NCBI RefSeq assembly: GCF_016903815.1
Contig: NZ_CP069973.1
Source: Escherichia coli
GTDB lineage: Bacteria > Pseudomonadota > Gammaproteobacteria > Enterobacterales > Enterobacteriaceae
DNA: 64,000 nt
Reading direction: 5' to 3' (one strand)
Shown here: positions 23,628 to 64,000 of the stretch, one piece after another
Layout: each line of letters starts with the position of its first letter
Position numbering within the stretch: the first letter of the stretch is position 1
Position numbers and translations under genes: made by a program
The notes under the pieces: generated by a model
Database searches by the model: none
Told to the model about the DNA's origin: nothing
Seen by the model: the letters and a program-made list of their open reading frames with translations, nothing else

Positions 23628-24677
23628 TTATGCAACCTCTGCCGCCATATTGTCGCCAACATACAGCGATAACGGATTAAGGGTTACAGCTTGTTCAAGG
23701 TGGTCAGGAGCAAAGTGTGCATACTTCATTGTTTCTCGAATATTGGCATGCCCGAGAATTTTCTGCAGTACCAGTATATTCCCGCCGTTCATCATAAAAT
23801 GCGCACCAAAAGTATGACGCAAAACGTGCGTCTTCTGCCCTTCCGTCAATTCAATATTCGTTAGTTTGAGCATCTTCTTAAACTCCTGATAGCAGGGTTT
23901 AAACATTCTGCCTTGACGTACGGACAACTCGTCGTACAGCCATTTAGGAATAGGAACTGTGCGATTCTTCTTACCTTTGGTTTTGGTGAACGTCAGTTTA
24001 TATGGAGAAAGTTGAGGGCGGGTCAATCTCTCCGCTTCCCCCCATCGAGCGCCGGTTGCAAGGCACACCTTAACAATCATGGTGAGGTCTTCTTTGCCGT
24101 ATTGCTCGCAGGCTCGAAACAGCTCCGGGAGCTGAGACAAAGTTAGCCAGGACATTTCTTTCTCAGCCTCTTTGAATACTCGGATCCCATCAAGTGGATT
24201 GGGTAGGCTCCACTCCCCTAACCGGCGGAGCTCATTAAACACTGCTTCTAGGTATTGTTGTTCGCGATTGACGGTTATAGGTTTGGCGATCCATTTCGAG
24301 GGGTCTTTATGATAACCGTTGTCTATTTCACCACGTAATCGACGGTCACGATAATGAGCCCAGTCTTTCGCGGTAAGGCGAGATGCAATCGGGTCACCAA
24401 GCCCATTACATACGATTTGAAGCTTTGCTAACCTCGACTTACTGGCGACTAACGCTTGACCGTGCAAATTGTGCCAAAGCTGAATAATCTCGCTTAAGCG
24501 TCGGCGGTCTTCTTTCTTGCCAAGCCACGGCTTATCTTCACTCTCGCTTTTGGTAAATGCTTCGAATGCCTCGGCCTCACCTTTGGTATTGAATTGCCGA
24601 CGTATACGCCGCCCTTCTCGACCATTTGGATAGAGCTCGCATAACCATTTGCCATTTTTTTGCTTACTTACAGTCAT
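23628..24677 (-). CDS. int: tyrosine site-specific integrase
   Basis: 349-aa product with R…HxxR…Y catalytic signature (VLRHTFGAHF, MKYAH); adjacent to attL. Confidence 0.9.
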   Translation of the reverse strand: MTVSKQKNGKWLCELYPNGREGRRIRRQFNTKGEAEAFEAFTKSESEDKPWLGKKEDRRRLSEIIQLWHNLHGQALVASKSRLAKLQIVCNGLGDPIASRLTAKDWAHYRDRRLRGEIDNGYHKDPSKWIAKPITVNREQQYLEAVFNELRRLGEWSLPNPLDGIRVFKEAEKEMSWLTLSQLPELFRACEQYGKEDLTMIVKVCLATGARWGEAERLTRPQLSPYKLTFTKTKGKKNRTVPIPKWLYDELSVRQGRMFKPCYQEFKKMLKLTNIELTEGQKTHVLRHTFGAHFMMNGGNILVLQKILGHANIRETMKYAHFAPDHLEQAVTLNPLSLYVGDNMAAEVA

Positions 24678-24699: not shown

Positions 24700-25038
24700 T
24701 TATTCGCAAAGTGCTGTTGCGGCATCCATTACAGGATCCAAAGGAATTTTTACACCTGCATACTCTGGACTGTCTTTCCAAACAGCATCAATATTGCTCC
24801 CCTCAAGCTTTCCAGACTTTACTCCATCAATAGCAAAACCATTTAATGGGTATCGGTCATCAGTTGCTTTGTCGTATACAAAGGCATACTTACCGTTAAC
24901 GCAAGACACCGTAGCTTTTTCAAAAGTTAACGGCCAATCCTCACCAAACTTAGCGCCATCTAAATCCTGTGTTTTTTCAGCGGCTAAGGAGCCAAAAGAA
25001 AAGGTAAGAAGCATAGCTAAAAAGAGTTTACGTTTCAT
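24700..25038 (-). CDS. small secreted/periplasmic protein of unknown function (moron between cI and int)
   Basis: Start chosen at MKRKLFLAMLLTFSFGSLAA (cleavable signal peptide); two Cys residues; no recognised domain. Confidence 0.55.
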   Translation of the reverse strand: MKRKLFLAMLLTFSFGSLAAEKTQDLDGAKFGEDWPLTFEKATVSCVNGKYAFVYDKATDDRYPLNGFAIDGVKSGKLEGSNIDAVWKDSPEYAGVKIPLDPVMDAATALCE

Positions 25039-25046
25039 AATTTCCC

Positions 25047-25907
25047 TTATACGTGTTTTTCCAATGTGAAAACTACAACCCCGGCAGGCGTAATGTCGGT
25101 AATGTTGCATTCAAACTCAGCAGACTTATTTGACAACCTGACTTTTCCACCAGGTAAACGAATTACATCAAAAACATCAAGAGCGCCGTCGATATCAATT
25201 AACCAGCGACCATTACTTATATTCGAAGCAGAACAGTCGACAAGCCAAGAGGCAGCTACACCGTCAACAAAAATCAATTCCCCTGAGTTAGAAGGAATCA
25301 TTGAGGGGTCAGGATGCCACGTTCCTGCATCCTTAAGCTCACCAGATTCAAGACGAGATTTTTTAATAGAAAAACCAGATGTGACATCTTCCCTGTTAGC
25401 TCGCATTTGCCCCTTGCCTGTTGCTAACCATTCCAGTGACGTATCGGTATCAAGAGCGCATGTAACAACAACATCACCAGGGAAAAAATCTCGCCTTACC
25501 CATGTGCTAATTGTGCCAGAGGAAATGCCGAGCAAATCACCGAGCTCCTTTTGCATGGTAAAGCCATACGCATCAAGAATCCTACGCAAAACGGTTTTAC
25601 CACCATTCGTCATAATCTCGTCATAAAGCTCTTTGCCTTTTAACTTGCAACTGGCTCGCTCGTGATTTGCATTTGCAAGCTCTCCATTTACAAGCCAATT
25701 GATATCAGCTCCCGTGTCAAGACAACACCTAACTATGACATTGCCAGGTATTGCATCACGCTGAACCCAGCCGCTAACGCTGTGTTTAGCGATACCTAGC
25801 AGGTCAGCCAAATCCTTTTGCATCTTGACCCCATAGGCTGACATTAAGCGTTCCAATACGCCGTTCGTTGCACTAACACGCCACTGAACATCAAGCTCAG
25901 AACTCAT
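25047..25907 (-). CDS. CI-like immunity repressor with tandem duplicated N-terminal HTH domains
   Basis: Two homologous segments (…RLMSAYGVKMQKDLADLLGIAKHSVSGWVQRDAIPGNVIVRCCLDTGADINWLVNGE and …RILDAYGFTMQKELGDLLGISSGTISTWVRRDFFPGDVVVTCALDTDTSLEWLATGKG) resembling the 186/P2 CI DNA-binding domain, plus a C-terminal domain; divergent from the early operon. Confidence 0.75.
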   Translation of the reverse strand: MSSELDVQWRVSATNGVLERLMSAYGVKMQKDLADLLGIAKHSVSGWVQRDAIPGNVIVRCCLDTGADINWLVNGELANANHERASCKLKGKELYDEIMTNGGKTVLRRILDAYGFTMQKELGDLLGISSGTISTWVRRDFFPGDVVVTCALDTDTSLEWLATGKGQMRANREDVTSGFSIKKSRLESGELKDAGTWHPDPSMIPSNSGELIFVDGVAASWLVDCSASNISNGRWLIDIDGALDVFDVIRLPGGKVRLSNKSAEFECNITDITPAGVVVFTLEKHV

Positions 25908-26028: not shown

Positions 26029-26400
26029 ATGTCAGATGCAAAATCAATCTCGACGCACGACTCGCAAAACTCACAAAATCAAACTGTGCTGCTAAATCCA
26101 ACACAGTTTGATGCCATCGTTACCGCCATGCTGCCAGCTCTACAGACAATGATTCGCTCCGCTATGTCAGACACGATGACTGTGAAAGACTTCGCCGCTA
26201 CTCGCGGTGTTAGCGAGCGTCTGGTCTGGCAATGGCTCGATGAGGGAGTCCTTCTCAAAGCTCCGACCAAAGACTTTTCCAACAAAGAGGAAGCTGCTAA
26301 ACGAAGCCGAACCCTCGTAAACGTAAAAGCATGGCGCGATAAGCTGACTCAACAAGCGATTGATTGTCGCTACATCGACCAGCGCACCGCTCTTAACTGA
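26029..26400 (+). CDS. Apl/Cox-like excisionase-regulator (HTH)
   Basis: First gene of early operon, AGGAG SD; HTH-like segment VKDFAATRGVSERLVWQWL; role assigned by position. Confidence 0.5.
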   Translation: MSDAKSISTHDSQNSQNQTVLLNPTQFDAIVTAMLPALQTMIRSAMSDTMTVKDFAATRGVSERLVWQWLDEGVLLKAPTKDFSNKEEAAKRSRTLVNVKAWRDKLTQQAIDCRYIDQRTALN

Positions 26401-26432: not shown

Positions 26433-26942
26433 ATGTTTGATTTTCAGGTTTCCAAACATCCCCACTATGACGAAGCATGCCGCATTTTCGCACAGCGTCA
26501 CAACATGGCGAAGCTGGCCGAGCGTGCAGGTATGAACGTTCAAACGTTACGTAACAAGCTCAACCCGGAACAGCCTCACCAGTTCACGCCGTCTGAATTG
26601 TGGCTGCTGACTGACCTGACCGAAGACTCAACCCTCATTGATGGTTTTTTAGCGCAGATTCACTGCCTACCATGCGTGCCGGTTAATGAGTTGGCTAAAG
26701 ACAAATTGCAGTCTTATGTCATGCGCGCAATGCGTGAACTCGGCGAACTGGCGAGCGGCGCGGTATCTGATGAACGTCTGACCATTGCCCGTAAGCACAA
26801 CATGATTGAAAGCGTTAACTCCGGCATTCGCATGTTGTCATTGTCGGCTCTGGCGCTGCATGCACGTCTGCAGACTAATCCAGCTATGTCGAGCGTGGTC
26901 GATACCATGAGCGGTATTGGCGCATCGTTTGGTCTGATTTGA
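26433..26942 (+). CDS. cII: CII-like lysogeny establishment regulator (phage 186 type)
   Basis: 169-aa product starting MFDFQVSKHPHYDEACR, recognised as 186 CII-like. Confidence 0.8.
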   Translation: MFDFQVSKHPHYDEACRIFAQRHNMAKLAERAGMNVQTLRNKLNPEQPHQFTPSELWLLTDLTEDSTLIDGFLAQIHCLPCVPVNELAKDKLQSYVMRAMRELGELASGAVSDERLTIARKHNMIESVNSGIRMLSLSALALHARLQTNPAMSSVVDTMSGIGASFGLI

Positions 26943-26943
26943 G

Positions 26944-27150
26944 GTGCGTATGCTGAAAAGTGAACCGTCATTCGCATCTCTGCTCGTTAAGCAAAGCCCC
27001 GGCATGCACTACGGCCACGGCTGGATCGCAGGTAAGGACGGCAAGCGCTGGCACCCGAGCCACTCGCAGGCTGATTTACTGGCTGGCCTCTCTACTCAAA
27101 AGCGGGGGGGATCATGGCTATCGAAGCTGTTTCCGCGACTGTTCCGCTAA
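26944..27150 (+). CDS. hypothetical early protein
   Basis: ORF in early operon, start codon overlaps cII stop; no recognised motif. Confidence 0.4.
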   Translation: MRMLKSEPSFASLLVKQSPGMHYGHGWIAGKDGKRWHPSHSQADLLAGLSTQKRGGSWLSKLFPRLFR

Positions 27151-27969: not shown

Positions 27970-30192
27970 TTGGCTGTTCAATTCGCTTATCCGTGGAACG
28001 TCCCACGGTCGGCAATCTCCAGCCCATACCTTACTTATGAGCAACAGCATCGCCGCGACCGTATGTTCGCGGCTTTGCTGCATGCAAAAAAGGTGCTTTC
28101 TCTCCAGCCCGACTGCGTGCGGTTAGATGTTTATCGCACTGCTGCGGTGCTGGAGCAAAATCAGGGTAGTCAACGAGCCAATGCATTTTTAATCAGCTTC
28201 TGCAAAAAGGCATTGCCGCGTCTTGAACTGGTCGCAAAAAAATACGAATGCGCTGGTATCAACAGCAAGGTATCAACCGCTGTTTTTGGAAGTCATTTTG
28301 ATACTCAGCAAATGCAATATCTGTCGTCACGCATGGTTAATATGGTCGCCCGATATAACCGTCTCCCGGACATGTCGCGCGCTGATGTTGACCTGTTGGC
28401 CGCTGATATTGCTAATTTCATTCGTGGTGAACTTGCCAACATTAATGACCACGGATTCGGCGAGCTTAAAACGCTGTACACCTGGTATATTCGTGCTGGC
28501 TTTATTTCCCTCCAATTCAACGTTATCCCACCACATTGGGAGCGGGTTGAAAAAAAATATGTCGGTGCGGATGAAATCGCACCGGCTATCGCCAAAATGT
28601 TTAACGATGGGTGGTGGCGCGGTCGTTTGCGCCGTGTAGCAGCTACGTGGCGCGAACACCTGCAAATTGCAGTCGGCAACGTCAGTAAGAAAAAAAACAC
28701 TTACGCGAGTAAAAACTGCGTGACTGACTGGCGTGAACAAAAGCGCCGCACTCGTGAATTTCTCAAAGGTCTGGATCTCGAAGACGAAGACGGCAACCGT
28801 ATCAGCCTAATTGAAAAATATGATGGCTCAGTTGCTAACCCTGCGATTCGCCGCTGTGAGCTCATGACCCGCATTCGTGGGTTTGAAAACATCTGTAATG
28901 AGCTCGGTTATGTCGGTGAGTTTTACACTCTAACCGCGCCGTCAAAATATCACGCCACGACTAAAGCCGGTTACCGTAACAGCAAATGGAGCGGTGCCAG
29001 CCCGGCTGACACGCAAAACTATCTAACCGGTATCTGGGCGCGTATCCGTGCCAAACTACATCGGGAAGATGTCCGTATTTTCGGTATTCGTGTCGCCGAG
29101 CCCCATCACGACGGCACTCCACACTGGCACATGCTGATGTTCATGCTGCCGGAAGATGTTGAATATGTTCGCTCCATCGTCCGTAAATACGCATGGAAAG
29201 AAGACCGCCACGAACTGAAAAGCGATAAATCCAAAAAAGCACGTTTCCACGCGGAGTCCATTGACCCGGAGAAAGGCAGCGCAACCGGCTATGTTGCTAA
29301 ATACATTTCAAAAAATATCGACGGTTATGCTCTCGATGGTGAAACCGATGATGAAAGCGGTGAGCTGCTGAAAGAGACAGCCCCCGCCGTTTCAGCATGG
29401 GCTGCGCGCTGGCACATCCGTCAGTTTCAGTTTATTGGTGGTGCGCCGGTGACGGTTTACCGTGAGTTGCGTCGCCTCGCTGATACCGAAACCGCGCACG
29501 GTCTGAGCGTTGAGTTTGCCGCCGTCCATGATGCCGCCGACGCTGGTGACTGGGCTGGTTATGTTAATGCTCAGGGTGGGCCGTTTGTCCGTCGCGATGA
29601 TTTACAGGTGCGCACACTGTATGAACCGCGTACCGAGCTTAATCAGTACGGTGAGGAAACGGTATGTATTAAGGGGGTCTACGATTCCTCCATAGGTGCA
29701 GGAAGCCCGATTTTAACCCGGCTCACTCAGTGGAAGATTGTTCCGAAGCGTGCTGTTGATTTGGCCGTTGACCTTCAGGACGGCAAAGCCGTCCCTCGGA
29801 GTTCTGTCAATAACTGTACGGGAAGCGAAAGCGATCCACCGATACTGGATTTAACAAAACCACTGAGTCGGCGTGAAAGACGAGAATTGACCAACCGACT
29901 CAGGAAGCAAAAGCCAGCAGCACGGCGAAAATTCATCCACGGAACGGATGAGCAAAACGCAGCTATAGCTAAAACTATCGATGAGATACATCTGACAACC
30001 GGCATTAATATCAGCCGGGGCGAAGCCCTGCACCTGATGGCCGGTGGTAAAAGTTGTTTTGATGGTAAATGGCTACGCGGAACGGCCAAAGGAGAAATAT
30101 TTTCCGCAGCACCATCGCATGAAGCTAAAGCTCGGAAAATCCTTAATCGTGTTGCGGCGATGGCTGAAGCATCAAAACCAATACATGAGTAA
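27970..30192 (+). CDS. replication initiation endonuclease (P2 gpA-like rolling-circle Rep)
   Basis: 740-aa product with HxH metal motif (HWHMLMF) and active-site Tyr context (YVAKYISK). Confidence 0.9.
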   Translation: MAVQFAYPWNVPRSAISSPYLTYEQQHRRDRMFAALLHAKKVLSLQPDCVRLDVYRTAAVLEQNQGSQRANAFLISFCKKALPRLELVAKKYECAGINSKVSTAVFGSHFDTQQMQYLSSRMVNMVARYNRLPDMSRADVDLLAADIANFIRGELANINDHGFGELKTLYTWYIRAGFISLQFNVIPPHWERVEKKYVGADEIAPAIAKMFNDGWWRGRLRRVAATWREHLQIAVGNVSKKKNTYASKNCVTDWREQKRRTREFLKGLDLEDEDGNRISLIEKYDGSVANPAIRRCELMTRIRGFENICNELGYVGEFYTLTAPSKYHATTKAGYRNSKWSGASPADTQNYLTGIWARIRAKLHREDVRIFGIRVAEPHHDGTPHWHMLMFMLPEDVEYVRSIVRKYAWKEDRHELKSDKSKKARFHAESIDPEKGSATGYVAKYISKNIDGYALDGETDDESGELLKETAPAVSAWAARWHIRQFQFIGGAPVTVYRELRRLADTETAHGLSVEFAAVHDAADAGDWAGYVNAQGGPFVRRDDLQVRTLYEPRTELNQYGEETVCIKGVYDSSIGAGSPILTRLTQWKIVPKRAVDLAVDLQDGKAVPRSSVNNCTGSESDPPILDLTKPLSRRERRELTNRLRKQKPAARRKFIHGTDEQNAAIAKTIDEIHLTTGINISRGEALHLMAGGKSCFDGKWLRGTAKGEIFSAAPSHEAKARKILNRVAAMAEASKPIHE

Positions 30193-30266
30193 TTCATATC
30201 CATATCATGCACATACAGCAATCGCTCTATTCGTTTTTTTTCTTCCCATCTTTTGCCAATACGTGC

Positions 30267-30286
30267 TACTGTATAAATATACAGTA
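30267..30286 (+). promoter_or_regulatory. LexA operator (SOS box) upstream of tum/dinI-like pair
   Basis: TACTGTATAAATATACAGTA, near-perfect CTGT-N8-ACAG palindrome, followed by GGGAGGG SD and ATG at 30306. Confidence 0.75.
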
Positions 30287-30305
30287 ACCCTATGGGAGGG
30301 ACTTC

Positions 30306-30488
30306 ATGGTTGGCGAACATTTCAGCCGAACGCAGCAAAAGTGGGCTTGTGTGCAATTTATTGCCGAGGTATCTCTGATTGCAAACTGCAAGCCATCAGA
30401 CTTAAAGCTCGCGCTCACTCTCATTGCAGACCTAGCAAACAGCGAAAATAACGAAACCGAAGATGATAATTTTTATAAGGCTGATTAG
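30306..30488 (+). CDS. small protein, candidate Tum-like antirepressor module
   Basis: 60-aa ORF directly downstream of the LexA box; function inferred from position only. Confidence 0.45.
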   Translation: MVGEHFSRTQQKWACVQFIAEVSLIANCKPSDLKLALTLIADLANSENNETEDDNFYKAD

Positions 30489-30491
30489 ATT

Positions 30492-30722
30492 ATGAGAATC
30501 AATATCACGTTGGATAAAGAGCAAAAATTAGGGCAACAGATCATTGATGCTTTTCAAAATGAAATAACACATCGAGTACAATGCGTTTTTCCTGCAACAA
30601 AAGTTAACGTTAAGAAAGGGTCAATGACTGGTGTAGAGGCTATCGGATTCGATAAAGAGGCGGACAGAGAAACATTAGGCAGCATATTACAAGAGATTTG
30701 GGAAGACGATAGCTGGCGTTAA
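30492..30722 (+). CDS. DinI-family protein
   Basis: 76-aa product with DinI-like C-terminus (…LGSILQEIWEDDSWR). Confidence 0.75.
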   Translation: MRINITLDKEQKLGQQIIDAFQNEITHRVQCVFPATKVNVKKGSMTGVEAIGFDKEADRETLGSILQEIWEDDSWR

Positions 30723-30761
30723 ACATAATAACCGTGCTGGCGCAAAAACTAGCTTTTTGCG

Positions 30762-30795
30762 TCGGCGGGGTTGAGTAACGAGCCCACGAGGCTTA
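30762..30795 (+). repeat. direct repeat copy 1 (GGCGGGGTTGAGTAACGAGCCCACGAGGC)
   Basis: About 80 percent identical to copy 2 at 31165..31198; follows a hairpin. Confidence 0.5.
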
Positions 30796-30921
30796 AGTCC
30801 TGCCTTTCAAAATTTCTCAATGTGCTATTGATGACACGCCCATGATTAATGAGGCATGACCTGAGATGGTTTTATAGTGGCGTTTTGACGGCACTGATTA
30901 AAATTCATTGAGGGTGATAAT

Positions 30922-31131
30922 ATGCATCGACTACCAGGTGAAATACCGCAACACAAAACTAAAAGCATCAAACTGATGGCCATCGTTCATCGTTTGCAGC
31001 AGATAATGGTCAATGAGAATTTGACACCCGCAGAGCTGGTCGGGTGTGCCGAAATAGTCAGGGATAATTACGGCAAGCTGGATAGCATCAGCAGGTCGAA
31101 ACAATACGCACCACCACCACGTCGACGATAG
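30922..31131 (+). CDS. hypothetical small protein (69 aa)
   Basis: Good SD (GAGGGTGA) 6 nt upstream of ATG; flanked by the two direct repeats. Confidence 0.4.
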   Translation: MHRLPGEIPQHKTKSIKLMAIVHRLQQIMVNENLTPAELVGCAEIVRDNYGKLDSISRSKQYAPPPRRR

Positions 31132-31164
31132 CAAACGCCGCCGGTTCTGAAACTCGCTTTCAGT

Positions 31165-31198
31165 ACTGGCGGGGGTTGAACAACGAGCACCGCGAGGC
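31165..31198 (+). repeat. direct repeat copy 2 (GGCGGGGGTTGAACAACGAGCACCGCGAGGC)
   Basis: See copy 1; lies in the convergent gap between the 69-aa ORF and the 313-aa gene. Confidence 0.5.
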
Positions 31199-31205
31199 GT
31201 TAGCA

Positions 31206-32147
31206 TTAATTTATTTTTAATGAATGGTAATCTCGTGAGTTGACCGAAGATTTGAGATAACTGCAATCATTAACCGACAGTATTGCCGCTAATAGGCGAC
31301 ATACCAGTGCCTGCATTTGCAGCAATATATCGTTACCATATTGACTGTTGTTAACACTTGAGAAACCAAGCGGTTGACCAAAAAAAATAGCCTCATGAAA
31401 ATTATCATTGCGGATGCCAGAAATGTTTTTTTTACCTGACACCCATGTGGGGATTGATAACCCATAAATTTTGCACATCCACTTTAATCGCTTGTAATGA
31501 TTTGGCGGTTTTTTATCAGGAGCCTTGTCATGCTCAGCCCACGACAAAGCAAAGCACCCATCAAGTGCCATGTAAAGGTACTGGAATTTTTCAAAAGAAA
31601 GGTATTGTGGGTTTTGAGATAAGAATAGTGCATGCACCACTGCCGCAATTCTTTTGGGGGAGTGCGCATCCTTATGTTTGCCATTTATATAATTAAGAGC
31701 CAGTTCTATGACTTCTTTTTCAGAGCATCCAACGAGAATAAAGTCGGTTAACTTAGTGGGCTTGATAGTGGTTGCATCTAAAAAACCAGCGTCAGTGGTT
31801 GTCAATCTTATTCCCTTGAAAAAAGAAAGGCACCACACAATAAAGTTGAGAGTTTCTAACGAGGATGTATTTTTTAATTTTAGTGTGTGCGTTTTGGGCA
31901 TACTGAATACTCGGTGACTATAAGGCATTGTGGATATGCCACCATTAAGGTTATATACATCTTGGTTTCCAGGGTATATCCAACCTTTCACAACGTTTTT
32001 ATCATTATTAACACGCTCCACTTTCTCATTGAGACCAGGTAAAGTAAGCAAAGAAAATTGTTCAGTCTCAATGTTAACTTCTACTGGATAGTATCCAAAC
32101 TCCGACATAATCTCATTGGGTTGCTGTTCGTCAACTTCACCTTGCAT
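31206..32147 (-). CDS. accessory protein (313 aa) with Rx4H motif; candidate HEPN-like abortive-infection protein
   Basis: A+T-rich ORF in the region between replication gene A and cos; motif GIRNDNFHEA (R-x4-H); no other recognised domain. Confidence 0.65.
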   Translation of the reverse strand: MQGEVDEQQPNEIMSEFGYYPVEVNIETEQFSLLTLPGLNEKVERVNNDKNVVKGWIYPGNQDVYNLNGGISTMPYSHRVFSMPKTHTLKLKNTSSLETLNFIVWCLSFFKGIRLTTTDAGFLDATTIKPTKLTDFILVGCSEKEVIELALNYINGKHKDAHSPKRIAAVVHALFLSQNPQYLSFEKFQYLYMALDGCFALSWAEHDKAPDKKPPNHYKRLKWMCKIYGLSIPTWVSGKKNISGIRNDNFHEAIFFGQPLGFSSVNNSQYGNDILLQMQALVCRLLAAILSVNDCSYLKSSVNSRDYHSLKIN

Positions 32148-32384
32148 ATCTTTCTCCGTTCAAAAATAGGCTCGATAATTATCGAGAGGCTATCATGTTT
32201 GGAAAGAATCAATGTCCGTAATTTTTGTAAATTTAAGGTGATTTATCAATAAATAAGCTGTGCATGCAACAGGTGCATGGTTCTGCATGCGCCGGGGTTA
32301 CCCGTTTTGTACGTGCGCCGCAAGAGCTGGCGGGGATCCAGAGTGGTCATGCAACTGCATTAAAACCGCCCCATAAAGCGGGCA

Positions 32385-32403
32385 GGCGTGGCGGGGAAAG
32401 CAT
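32385..32403. other. candidate cos site (cohesive end)
   Basis: GGCGTGGCGGGGAAAGCAT closely resembles my recollection of the P2 cohesive end (GGCGAGGCGGGGAAAGCAC); embedded in a GC-rich non-coding stretch near Q. Confidence 0.55.
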
Positions 32404-32622
32404 TGCGCGCCAGCAGTGATGCGTAATAATAAAAATTATCCTCTGAGCGCGTCGTGATGGCGCTGTCGTGGTCGCTGCTGGTTCGTTGGTGGTCGGGTGT
32501 GTTCGTGCGCGTGAGACGCATCTGATGCGTGATGGTGGTGTGCATGGAAAAGCCACCAGGAGCAGCGGCTTTACAGGAGTGGCAGGATTCAAACTGCTAA
32601 TTATGTTTCTACTATGATTAAA

Positions 32623-33627
32623 CTAATTTACATGTATGTAGAGTTCACCGTCGCCAGACCAATCGGGACACTCTAAAACAAGCCCAAACTGCTTGAATAT
32701 TTCATCAATGATTATTGTTATCTCCCGAAAATCACCAAAACCTGTAATGTGCTGGTCATTAAACTTCCCATAAAGATTCTGAAAAGCAATGCCTAATTCT
32801 GATAATTGATATCTTATCTTTGAGTTGGATAGTGTAAGGGATAGCTTTGGATCGTATTCTTTAATATTGATGTTTAGAGAATGGACATAACCCATCGCAT
32901 AAGCATAAGAGTTGATGATTAGCCTGATACGTTTTTTTACTTCGAGATACATGTCATTCAGAGAAATATTACCGTACTTATAACCCCAGATGAGTTTTTC
33001 AATCTCGTCAGATACTTCATTTACAACAGTGTCAAGATTCTCTAAAAATAAATCGATAGTTTCTTGAGGGGCAGACCCCGAAGACATGTAATTAGCGAGA
33101 TATTCAGACCATGCACGCGTGGCTGAGATAAGAAGCGCGCTACCATACTCGTTGACTGTAAAGTTTTGGGCTAAGCATGTTAGTAAGTTTTTTTCATGTA
33201 CGTGCACTAATTCATGGTGAATGCGATGGATGACTGCGAGGTATCCTTCTTCTTTCAGTTTTAAGAAGCTACCATCATTGAAAAGCTCAACAAAAAAATC
33301 AATCGATAGCACAAGGGTATATTCTTCACATAGCCCATCATTGCCAATTTTTGTTACTAACTGCCCGACGGCTGCGCCCTGTTTGCTATTGGTAAATGAA
33401 CTAGGGGATTTGTGTTGGTAAGAGGATGTTACCTTTTGAAGAGCTTCACTGAAGTTATAGGAAACAATCACGCATTTTAATTTGGAGATATCAAGATTGA
33501 GATTTTTTGTTAAAGCTCGGATAGCTTCTAGTGTGAAATTACCGATATTATTTGCTTCTTGCTCAGTAGCGAAACCTTCGAGGGTTATTTTAAAATCAGT
33601 TTCCAAAATATTAATCTCCGCGCCCAT
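32623..33627 (-). CDS. accessory protein (334 aa) with HExxH motif; candidate zincin-like metallopeptidase
   Basis: A+T-rich ORF between cos and portal gene Q; motif HRIHHELVHVHE with Glu about 23 residues downstream. Confidence 0.65.
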   Translation of the reverse strand: MGAEINILETDFKITLEGFATEQEANNIGNFTLEAIRALTKNLNLDISKLKCVIVSYNFSEALQKVTSSYQHKSPSSFTNSKQGAAVGQLVTKIGNDGLCEEYTLVLSIDFFVELFNDGSFLKLKEEGYLAVIHRIHHELVHVHEKNLLTCLAQNFTVNEYGSALLISATRAWSEYLANYMSSGSAPQETIDLFLENLDTVVNEVSDEIEKLIWGYKYGNISLNDMYLEVKKRIRLIINSYAYAMGYVHSLNINIKEYDPKLSLTLSNSKIRYQLSELGIAFQNLYGKFNDQHITGFGDFREITIIIDEIFKQFGLVLECPDWSGDGELYIHVN

Positions 33628-42519: not shown

Positions 42520-42563
42520 AGGTGGGCGTGCCCACTGAGTTGGGTTCGATTCCCTAACCTCGT
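42520..42563 (+). other. tRNA 3'-end-like fragment (T-arm-like GGGTTCGATTCCC), not a complete tRNA
   Basis: T-loop consensus TTCGATT with flanking G/C stem; upstream part cannot be folded into a cloverleaf. Confidence 0.3.
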
Positions 42564-43390
42564 ATTATTCCTCTCGATATTTTTATTGCTGGGTTTTCCT
42601 TTCTTATTTCATTTTTAATTTGCTCATCACAAATTAAATAATCTATGTTTTTTGCTTTAACAAGTTCTTTAACGCTAATGTTAATTGAATTTAATAGATT
42701 TGCATTCCGCATGTTAGCCCCTTCATAAGTAACGGATTTAAAATCACATCCTTTTAATATGCAGCTTTTCATTTCGCTATCTGTAAAATACCCCCCTTCA
42801 AAACTGCAGTTTTCGAAAGTGACATTTTGAAAACATGTATTAAATGCCTTAATATTTCTTAGCTTGCAGTTTTTGAATTTAACACTCTTAACTCTATTGC
42901 CTGTAATATTTAGAGCTTGAATTGTGCAATTATCGAAAGAACAATCTCTAATGTATGATTCGCTCATATTCAAGCCGGTTAAGTCAGCGTCTTTAAAATG
43001 TAAATATTTGATAGTGGACATTTTATCAAGTTCAATCCTTGGAACTTGAATGTTATATATTCCTTTAGCATTTAACTGACGTATGATTTTTATCTTCATA
43101 ATATTCAGTTCTGCAGAAGAATGCTTTGCCAGATTTTCAAGATCTTCAATTAGTTCGTGAATAGCATCTTTATTTTGCCTTTTATTTTCAAAATAGTAAA
43201 GAATCACACCCAAAACAAGAAAGTCTAAAATTGAAGAATTTGCATTAACAAGAAAATTCTCCATGAATTTTGAGTTGTAGTTATCATTATAAACAGACAA
43301 CCCTACTATAAGCCCGGAGTATAAAAAAAAGATACCTATAATATATTTCATATTGCTTATTGTACGCCTAAAAGATGAAGTTCTTTTCAT
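42554..43390 (-). CDS. membrane-anchored pentapeptide-repeat protein (accessory/moron)
   Basis: Very A+T-rich ORF; start chosen at MKRTSSF (AGGT 5 nt upstream); two N-terminal hydrophobic segments, then tandem 5-residue repeats (…DADLTGLNMSESYIRDCSFDNCTIQALNITGN…). Confidence 0.7.
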   Translation of the reverse strand: MKRTSSFRRTISNMKYIIGIFFLYSGLIVGLSVYNDNYNSKFMENFLVNANSSILDFLVLGVILYYFENKRQNKDAIHELIEDLENLAKHSSAELNIMKIKIIRQLNAKGIYNIQVPRIELDKMSTIKYLHFKDADLTGLNMSESYIRDCSFDNCTIQALNITGNRVKSVKFKNCKLRNIKAFNTCFQNVTFENCSFEGGYFTDSEMKSCILKGCDFKSVTYEGANMRNANLLNSINISVKELVKAKNIDYLICDEQIKNEIRKENPAIKISRGIIRG

Positions 43391-48236: not shown

Positions 48237-48483
48237 ATGTTTATCGGTTATGTACGTGTATCAACAAATGACCAGAACACCGCATTACAGCGAAATGAAC
48301 TGGAGTGCGCAGGATGTGAGCTGATTTTCGAAGATAAAATCAGCGGCAAAACATCAATCAGACTGGCCGGGGCTAAAGAGGTTACTCAGAACCTTGTCAG
48401 AGGGCGATACGCTTGTGGTCTGGAAACTGGATCGCCTCGGGTATCTCAACGCTATACAAACAATTTCCCGCATCCGTTGCTGA
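48237..48483 (+). pseudogene. Hin/Gin/Pin-family serine DNA invertase, frameshifted and 3'-truncated remnant
   Basis: N-terminus MFIGYVRVSTNDQNTALQRNELECAGCELIFEDKISGK matches the invertase catalytic region; homology continues in another frame (…PGLKRLLRTLSEGDTLVVWKLDRLG) after an A4 run at 48349..48352, then is lost before a stop at 48481. Confidence 0.75.
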
Positions 48484-48581
48484 TGTCTCAATGTGTCAGA
48501 CATCGCCCAACACTGACAAATAGCCCCTCAACAGACCAGCCAGGACAATAACACTTGCCCACTAACCACGGAGTTAACCGG

Positions 48582-62911: not shown

Positions 62912-62930
62912 TTTTACGCCAGCCTCTTTA

Positions 62931-62968
62931 CTGTATATAAAACCAGTTTATACTGTACACAATAACAG
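62931..62968 (+). promoter_or_regulatory. recN promoter with two LexA operators (SOS boxes)
   Basis: CTGTATATAAAACCAG (62931..62946) and CTGTACACAATAACAG (62953..62968) just upstream of the recN ATG. Confidence 0.75.
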
Positions 62969-62996
62969 TAATGGTTTTTCATACAGGAAAACAACT

Positions 62997-64000
62997 ATGT
63001 TGGCACAACTGACCATCAGCAACTTTGCTATCGTTCGTGAGCTTGAGATTGATTTTCATAGCGGCATGACCGTAATAACTGGCGAGACCGGCGCGGGTAA
63101 ATCTATTGCAATAGATGCCCTCGGCCTTTGTCTCGGTGGTCGCGCTGAAGCCGACATGGTGCGTACCGGCGCTGCTCGTGCCGACCTGTGCGCCCGTTTT
63201 TCTCTGAAAGATACGCCAGCGGCCCTGCGCTGGCTGGAAGAAAACCAGCTTGAAGACGGTCATGAATGTTTGCTTCGTCGCGTAATCAGTAGCGATGGTC
63301 GCTCACGAGGTTTTATCAACGGTACAGCTGTTCCTCTGTCACAACTTCGCGAACTGGGCCAGTTGTTGATTCAGATCCATGGTCAGCACGCCCATCAGTT
63401 ACTCACCAAACCCGAGCACCAAAAATTCCTGCTTGATGGCTATGCCAATGAAACCTCTCTGCTCCAGGAAATGACCGCACGTTATCAGTTGTGGCATCAA
63501 AGCTGCCGTGACCTCGCACATCATCAACAGTTAAGTCAGGAACGCGCCGCCCGTGCGGAACTGCTGCAATACCAATTAAAAGAACTTAACGAATTTAATC
63601 CGCAGCCCGGAGAGTTTGAGCAAATCGACGAAGAGTACAAACGTCTGGCGAACAGCGGTCAATTGCTGACTACCAGCCAGAATGCATTGGCAGTAATGGC
63701 CGACGGTGAAGACGCAAACCTGCAAAGTCAGCTTTACACGGCTAAACAACTGGTGAGCGAATTGATTGGCATGGACAGCAAACTGTCCGGCGTACTTGAT
63801 ATGCTGGAAGAAGCTACCATCCAGATTGCTGAAGCCAGCGATGAACTGCGCCACTACTGCGATCGTCTGGATCTCGATCCCAACCGACTGTTTGAACTTG
63901 AACAGCGCATCTCAAAACAGATTTCGCTGGCACGTAAACATCACGTCAGCCCTGAGGCATTGCCACAGTATTACCAGTCGCTACTGGAAGAACAGCAGCA
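62997..64000 (+). CDS. recN: DNA repair protein RecN (3'-partial, runs off window end)
   Basis: Start [20 protein letters not shown] with Walker A GETGAGKS; frame open to the window edge. Confidence 0.9.

Follow-up and report, generated by a model that had tools for sequence, protein, structure and literature searches.

Does a LexA-controlled pair of small genes make the prophage which carries it inducible by the SOS response and, if so, which of the two genes would do the work? This question is raised by a module at positions 30267-30722 of a 64,000-nt stretch of Escherichia coli DNA (contig NZ_CP069973.1 of assembly GCF_016903815.1; the whole stretch is called the window), in which a LexA operator is followed by an open reading frame (ORF) of 60 amino acids (aa) and an ORF of the DinI family. 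A preliminary description, made from the letters alone, had seen in this module the tum gene of coliphage 186 split into two genes and had predicted an SOS-inducible prophage of the 186 type. The module is read here, with a probability of roughly 85%, as the SOS operon of a PSP3-type P2-like prophage (genus Eganvirus, 186 lineage) occupying approximately 23.6-55.2 kb of the window. The two ORFs are referred to as tumA and tumB, the names used in the annotation of Salmonella phage PSP3.

The operator was examined at the outset, as the preliminary description had called it near-consensus and had placed it immediately upstream of the 60-aa ORF; both statements proved accurate. The sequence TACTGTATAAATATACAGTA (30267-30286, no strand assigned) deviates from the 20-mer LexA consensus TACTGTATATATATACAGTA at one central position and is the sole site within 3 mismatches of this consensus in the window, and none of 100 dinucleotide-preserving shuffles of the window yielded any 20-mer match with ≤ 3 mismatches. 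The shorter core CTGT-N8-ACAG was found four times, 0.7 occurrences being expected. The operator at 30267-30286 is identical to the box of PSP3 and lies 75 nt past the stop codon of the replication gene A. The exact core is also present in 77 of 80 related loci from IMG/VR, which had been retrieved with the DinI module and form a sample biased to relatives of the window TumB, at a fixed distance from the start of the DinI domain (-223 to -233, or -246). Because the box is kept at a fixed distance in so many loci, it is not regarded as a chance feature.

One other CTGT-N8-ACAG core of the window (62953-62968), adjoined by a second box-like sequence, is located 29 nt upstream of the host gene recN. 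The tandem boxes TACTGTATATAAAACCAGTT and TACTGTACACAATAACAGTA (62930-62970) precede this gene, of which only the part from its start at 62997 to the end of the window is present; NCBIfam NF008121 (622 bits) confirmed its identity. With its known SOS promoter, recN ranks among the classic SOS genes. As its box was detected by the same pattern, it serves as a positive control for the box search within the window itself.

The box at 30267-30286 overlaps the -10 hexamer of a p95-type promoter on the plus strand (30243-30272), which consists of the -35 hexamer TTCCCA (30243-30248), a spacer of 18 nt and the -10 hexamer TACTGT (30267-30272). It aligns column for column with the annotated promoter p95 of phage 186 (TTCACA, 18 nt, TACTGT), whose -10 hexamer is likewise inside a LexA box, the 186 box, homologous to that of the window, being annotated as a binding site of LexA. 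A DNA alignment of the window, PSP3 and 186 shows hardly any variation in the promoter, in the operator and at the 5' end of the DinI-coding part. From this arrangement, the window box is predicted to be a LexA site, placed so that bound LexA would occlude the promoter. An Rfam scan of 29800-31400 returned no RNA families.

The gene tumA (30306-30488, plus strand) encodes 60 aa. Its ATG is located 19 nt after the LexA box and is preceded by the Shine-Dalgarno sequence GGGAGGG (30294-30300); the TAG at 30486-30488 separates it from tumB. Its product is the predicted CI antirepressor of the prophage and is identical to PSP3 TumA in 59 of 60 residues (98%). The family comprises stand-alone proteins of about 60 aa in Enterobacteriaceae (208 clusters), some of which are named TumA in UniRef. 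TumA matches phrog_1993, a group of 'unknown function' (E = 1.1e-31); Pfam, NCBIfam, PADLOC and the PDB gave no match. Among the related loci, 67 of 103 nucleotide differences in tumA fall on third codon positions, so that tumA is under coding selection; an alignment of 43 sequences has 23 invariant columns out of 60. The AlphaFold2 model is a two-helix hairpin with helices at residues 8-25 and 30-50 (mean predicted local distance difference test, pLDDT, 71.5).

The 186 Tum protein (146 aa) is a LexA-repressed CI antirepressor (Shearwin et al. 1998, as cited in PMC3121763). This had been stated in the preliminary description and agrees with the annotation of 186, according to which LexA represses tum through a box that overlaps the -10 of p95, and Tum inhibits DNA binding by CI. 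TumA occupies the position of the N-terminus of Tum, i.e., the same place behind a homologous promoter and operator. With a profile hidden Markov model (HMM) of the TumA family, residues 15-49 of 186 Tum scored 12.7 bits (E = 0.01), the maximum for 2000 shuffles of that segment being 7.0; the segment also outscored all 773 other ORFs of the window. Comparison of the family alignments of TumA and of the Tum N-terminus with hhalign gave a probability of 77.7% and P = 1.9e-5 over 32 colinear columns. TumA residues 16-47 align with Tum residues 14-45, and the two N-modules, as TumA and the N-terminal part of Tum are called here, are ~34% identical over 32-41 residues. Remote homology seems the best reading of this similarity.

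Three nucleotides after the stop codon of tumA, tumB begins (30492-30722, plus strand, 76 aa), just as the preliminary description had the 60-aa ORF followed by a DinI-family ORF. Its product matches Pfam PF06183 (DinI) with E = 1.7e-17 and 63.9 bits against a cut-off of 24.2, covering profile positions 2-62 of 63. The alignment of TumB with DinI of E. coli (PDB 1GHH; E = 4.5e-8) spans the entire protein, whose C-terminal acidic helix is kept (ILQEIWEDDSW against ILQETWESADDW). With the DinI equivalog model NF007893 of NCBIfam it reaches 51.4 bits, which is under the cut-off of 111; thus, TumB is DinI-like, not an orthologue of the chromosomal DinI.

The second half of Tum is DinI-like (Lemire et al. 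2011, PMC3121763). The preliminary description had likewise given Tum a DinI-like C-terminal part, and the comparison agrees: residues 71-146 of 186 Tum and TumB are 70% identical over 76 residues (E = 8e-42). The further claim that the two parts of Tum are separate genes here also holds, the N-terminal part matching weakly yet above chance. In 186, Tum is a single fused chain whose linker adds about 12 codons; in the window, the parts are two genes. The ATG of tumB is exactly colinear with the internal GTG (locus L002, position 1915) of the shortest truncated Tum of 186, a product annotated 'modulates SOS induction'. It follows that the DinI part is a product of its own already in 186, an arrangement which the split phages make permanent.

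If TumA is to act as an antirepressor, its inferred target is the CI repressor of the prophage (286 aa, 25047-25907, minus strand). Pfam finds Phage_CI_repr twice, followed by Phage_CI_C, i.e., two tandem helix-turn-helix (HTH) domains at approximately residues 1-95 and 96-175 and a CI C-terminal domain. CI is 98% identical to PSP3 CI. The 186 CI is a short protein with a single HTH (192 aa), in contrast to the double-HTH CI of the window; it aligns solely to the second HTH and the C-terminal domain of the latter (32% identity over window CI residues 106-279). Among 17 distinct CIs of the PSP3 class, identities in the hypervariable first HTH range from 34 to 100%, with 17 invariant columns among 95, and the second HTH is most conserved (43 of 80 columns invariant), which suggests that the extra N-terminal HTH sets immunity specificity. 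No S24 peptidase domain was found in CI by Pfam, which rules out RecA-mediated autocleavage of CI as the route of induction. This leaves an antirepressor as the expected, and the only evident, route.

According to the preliminary description, the prophage would be closer to 186 than to the non-inducible P2. As far as P2 is concerned, this stands: the early region is of the CI/Apl/CII/Fil type with a tum operon, not of the C/Cox layout of P2 without an SOS operon. CII (26433-26942, plus strand; Pfam Phage_CP76) is 97% identical to the CII of 186 and 80% to that of PSP3, and Fil (26950-27150, plus strand) is present with 95% identity to PSP3 Fil and 86% to 186 Fil. What must be amended is the choice of 186 as the nearest relative. 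Judged by CI and TumA (98% each), the closest relative is PSP3, not 186, and the best matches of the whole region are PSP3, SEN1, SW9 and SI22, which are members of Eganvirus or relatives. PSP3 (AY135486) has the same succession of gene A, LexA box, 60-aa tumA, 3-nt gap, DinI-like tumB and a gp37 homologue; there, tumA is annotated as 'similar to 5' end 186 tum; UV induction of prophage' and tumB as 'similar to dinI and 3' end of 186 tum'. The differences concern TumB, which is nearer to the C-terminus of 186 Tum (70%) than to PSP3 TumB (47%), and CII, which is nearer to that of 186. In sequence terms, the prophage is a PSP3/186 mosaic in E. coli with PSP3-type immunity and antirepressor and a 186-like DinI module and cII.

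The exchange can be localized. The window and PSP3 are near-identical through tumA and the first ~40 nt of tumB and then drop to ~50% identity, which marks 30492-30535 as a recombination junction. Within this stretch, the window, PSP3 and 186 share without any difference the segment AATATCACGTTGGATAAAGA, which codes for N-I-T-L-D-K and may be the crossover site for swapping of DinI modules. In about 40 complete E. coli genomes, the match is confined to nucleotides 1-342 of the module, which comprise the promoter, tumA and the first 40 nt of tumB, and the sequences diverge thereafter; 26 complete E. coli genomes carry the module in identical or nearly identical form.

Two discrete classes were found among the 80 IMG/VR loci, 20 split and 57 fused; the remaining three have no exact match to the box. 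Split loci encode a TumA of 60-63 aa, have the LexA box at -223 to -233 and show a gap of 3 nt between tumA and tumB throughout (22/22 with the window and PSP3 counted). Fused loci have the box at -246, and their product is always 146 aa long (58/58 with 186 counted). Where cI had been captured, it was of the long PSP3 type in 18/18 split loci, as in the window and PSP3, and had 186 CI as best match in 46/46 fused loci, as in 186 itself; three of the fused loci have a CI which is only 41-43% identical to 186 CI. It is therefore defensible to say that the family of the N-module tracks the family of CI, as would be expected of a CI-binding protein. The DinI module is exchanged freely, near-identical TumA proteins being paired with a 186-like TumB in the window and with a different TumB in PSP3.

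Split systems are known from further prophages, one of which provides genetic data. In the P2-like E. coli HS prophage DuoHS, induction by mitomycin C was abolished by an in-frame deletion of tum and also by lexA(Ind-) (Phollow study, PMC12055606). Using the locus tag and primer NHR28 given in the supplement of PMC12055606 together with the HS genome, this 'tum' was identified as ECHS_RS04495, an ORF of 62 aa behind the LexA box TACTGTAAATATAAACAGTG. The DinI-like gene ECHS_RS04500 lies 10 nt downstream (locus L087, 10620-11052) and was left intact in the deletion, which implies that the small upstream gene alone is required in this split system. As in the window, the split pair of DuoHS stands behind a LexA box directly after the gene of the replication endonuclease. 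The gap is 10 nt there and 3 nt here, and CI of DuoHS is short (189 aa). A general rule that a split tum always goes together with a long double-HTH CI, which was considered, is hence ruled out by DuoHS. Its DinI-like protein is 78% identical to PSP3 TumB and 41% to the window TumB. RefSeq lists ECHS_RS04495 as 'hypothetical protein', and neither Pfam nor NCBIfam contains the small antirepressors of the Tum type, which constitutes an annotation gap.

The tum of Salmonella prophage Fels-2 is split in two as well, and that of Fels-2 and that of PSP3 are divided by a stop codon (Bunny, Liu & Roth 2002, as cited in PMC3121763). No Fels-2-like phage with a TumA match at E ≤ 1e-3 was recovered in the phage collection, from which it is concluded that the upstream gene of Fels-2 probably belongs to another family of N-modules. 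In the Gifsy prophages, a dinI homologue and a small antirepressor (GfoA/GftA) share one LexA-controlled operon, the gene order being reversed compared to the window, with dinI first; non-polar deletions of the dinI homologues left induction unaffected (PMC3121763).

Taken together, the following course is proposed. In the lysogen, host LexA bound to 30267-30286, over the -10 hexamer of the p95-type promoter, would keep tumA and tumB silent. DNA damage would activate RecA, LexA would cleave itself and the promoter would fire. TumA would then bind CI of the prophage and block its binding to the operators, and the early lytic promoter thus freed would lead to lytic growth. TumB would come from this transcript as well, its translation probably being coupled to that of tumA across the gap of 3 nt. 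Its most likely role would be to modulate RecA filaments or the time course of the SOS response, not to act on CI.

Several points weigh against this account and are collected here. The SOS inducibility of this prophage is something we infer by analogy, and so is the notion that its LexA box, TumA and CI act as in 186 and PSP3, which we consider very probable. The antirepressor activity of the upstream gene of PSP3 goes back to a personal communication, which PMC3121763 cites second-hand. The similarity between TumA and the N-terminus of 186 Tum is weak, with an hhalign probability of only 77.7%, and a default BLASTP search of TumA against 186 Tum gave no alignment. DuoHS Tum has no significant similarity to TumA either, only the motif C-x6/7-LAL-x-[LW][IV][AS][DE][LI] being alignable; DuoHS accordingly supports the architecture and the logic of the system, not the TumA family specifically. 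The p95-type promoter was assigned by alignment to the promoter of 186, as its hexamers are weak and a generic σ70 scan did not call it. Finally, the integrity of the prophage was judged from its gene complement alone.

A different explanation would regard the module as essentially an SOS-inducible dinI 'moron', acting on host RecA as a modulator to the advantage of phage or host, while the 60-aa ORF is a leader or accessory peptide on which induction does not depend. The absence of TumA matches in Pfam, NCBIfam, PADLOC and the PDB and its place in a PHROG of unknown function would fit such a peptide, and other prophages, e.g., Gifsy, commonly have a DinI-like gene behind a LexA box (PMC3121763). 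This is nevertheless very unlikely. The strong conservation of TumA (23 invariant columns in 43 sequences) and its substitutions concentrated on third positions speak against it, as do its covariation with the CI family while tumB is exchanged freely and the colinear core it shares with the functional N-terminus of 186 Tum. Moreover, antirepressor activity is ascribed to the upstream gene in PSP3 (as cited in PMC3121763), DuoHS needs its upstream gene (PMC12055606), and some antirepressor is needed by a CI without an autocleavage domain.

If the two proteins instead formed a non-covalent, Tum-like heterodimer and only this complex inactivated CI, the constancy of the fused product (146 aa in 58/58 cases, both parts in one polypeptide) would be accounted for, and the invariant gap of 3 nt would suggest coupled, roughly stoichiometric synthesis. 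A co-evolved interface is, however, hard to reconcile with TumA proteins of 98-100% identity being paired with TumBs of 47% identity (window and PSP3) or with others in about 40 E. coli genomes. The DinI part of 186 is also made separately from the internal GTG and is annotated as a modulator, not as an antirepressor, and the Gifsy deletions of dinI homologues were without effect on induction (PMC3121763); the heterodimer is thus considered improbable. The prophage might also be defective or its operator and promoter dead, so that the module would be a relic which does not respond to DNA damage. In this direction point the lack of an attachment site (att) repeat of at least 18 nt and the fact that the only identical 'phage' record is an in-silico extraction of a prophage together with host flanks. 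Against it stand the complete and uninterrupted gene set from int to ogr, the intact ORFs throughout, the identical or nearly identical occurrence of the module in 26 complete E. coli genomes, and a LexA box differing from the consensus at 1 of 20 positions; a relic is accordingly judged to have very little chance of being correct. The reading of the module as a working SOS operon, with TumA as the antirepressor, is retained.

An extension of this reading is put forward tentatively and is, in our estimation, rather unlikely to hold in full. Antirepressor and DinI modules would be independently exchangeable cassettes, of which the N-module strictly follows the CI family (186 type, PSP3 double-HTH type or DuoHS type). 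Within the PSP3 class, TumA retains at least 78% identity while the first HTH of CI falls to 34%. If TumA contacts the second HTH or the C-terminal domain of CI, one TumA could cross-induce heteroimmune PSP3-type prophages. In polylysogens, such cross-induction would amount to the antirepressor 'crosstalk' shown for Gifsy and Fels-1 phages.

The surroundings of the module are those of a P2-like prophage. It extends from the integrase gene (23628-24677, minus strand) to ogr (~55.2 kb) and is inserted between yfiB/dgcN and rplS of the host. A search for direct att repeats of at least 18 nt flanking the prophage (window 23000-56000) found nothing convincing; hence, the att core must be shorter or imperfect. 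Between int and cI, a DUF2511 protein of 112 aa is encoded (24700-25038, minus strand), which has a hydrophobic, signal-like N-terminus and 97% identity to PSP3 gp28; its gene lies in the lysogenic operon and is therefore probably expressed from the prophage. Beyond cI, an apl-like ORF lies on the plus strand (26029-26400; 78% identity to PSP3 gp30), and the early region further contains B, orf80 and a TraR-like gene. The replication gene A (P2 gpA family; 27970-30192, plus strand; Pfam Phage_GPA, E = 2.4e-130) directly precedes the SOS operon, an order shared with 186 and PSP3.

Downstream of tumB, a terminator-like hairpin with a T-run (30736-30763, plus strand) occupies the position of t95a, a partial terminator of 186. 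The next ORF (30922-31131, plus strand, 69 aa) is 90% identical to PSP3 gp37 and belongs to phrog_11386 of unknown function. It agrees with orf97 of 186 in orientation and position, yet has no similarity to it, and may be a distal gene of the SOS operon reached by read-through. Between the SOS operon and the portal gene, three cargo ORFs of 313, 61 and 334 aa are found on the opposite strand (31206-32147, 32360-32545 and 32623-33627, minus strand), a region in place of which 186 has orf97. They had no match in Pfam or PADLOC and matched PHROGs only of unknown function (phrog_5937, phrog_11743). At this position, P2-like phages carry morons (old and tin in P2). The three ORFs are possible candidates for uncharacterised anti-phage or lysogenic-conversion genes.

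A region of 1.1 kb around the module is 100% identical to GenBank ON470592, 'Escherichia phage vB_EcoM-613R3', which is an in-silico prophage extraction from a clinical isolate and includes host flanks. There, the 60-aa ORF is labeled 'UV induction of prophage' and the following ORF 'DNA-damage-inducible protein I'. Two further observations were taken from the annotation of this record, with coordinates converted to the window: a 'YjcF' ORF (~42554-43390) is located among baseplate and tail-completion genes, and a short DNA-invertase fragment (~48237-48551) lies beside oppositely oriented tail-fibre assembly genes. The fragment may be the remnant of an invertible host-range segment.

A split tum, its control by LexA and the division of labour between its parts are already known from the GenBank annotation of PSP3 and from the literature, and the exact sequence has been deposited. 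Since the arrangement is annotated and published, the locus carries little weight as a discovery. What is added are the PSP3/186 mosaic structure of the module, the colinearity of tumB with the internal start of 186 tum, the identification of the DuoHS 'tum' as the upstream gene of a split pair, and the observation of an N-module that follows CI and a DinI module that is shuffled; the last is a modest, testable addition. The practical value lies in annotation and prediction. RefSeq and most phage records name TumA 'hypothetical protein', and Pfam and NCBIfam lack it; the inducibility of such prophages is therefore systematically under-annotated. By analogy with 186 and PSP3, this prophage should be treated as SOS-inducible, e.g., by fluoroquinolones, trimethoprim or mitomycin C.

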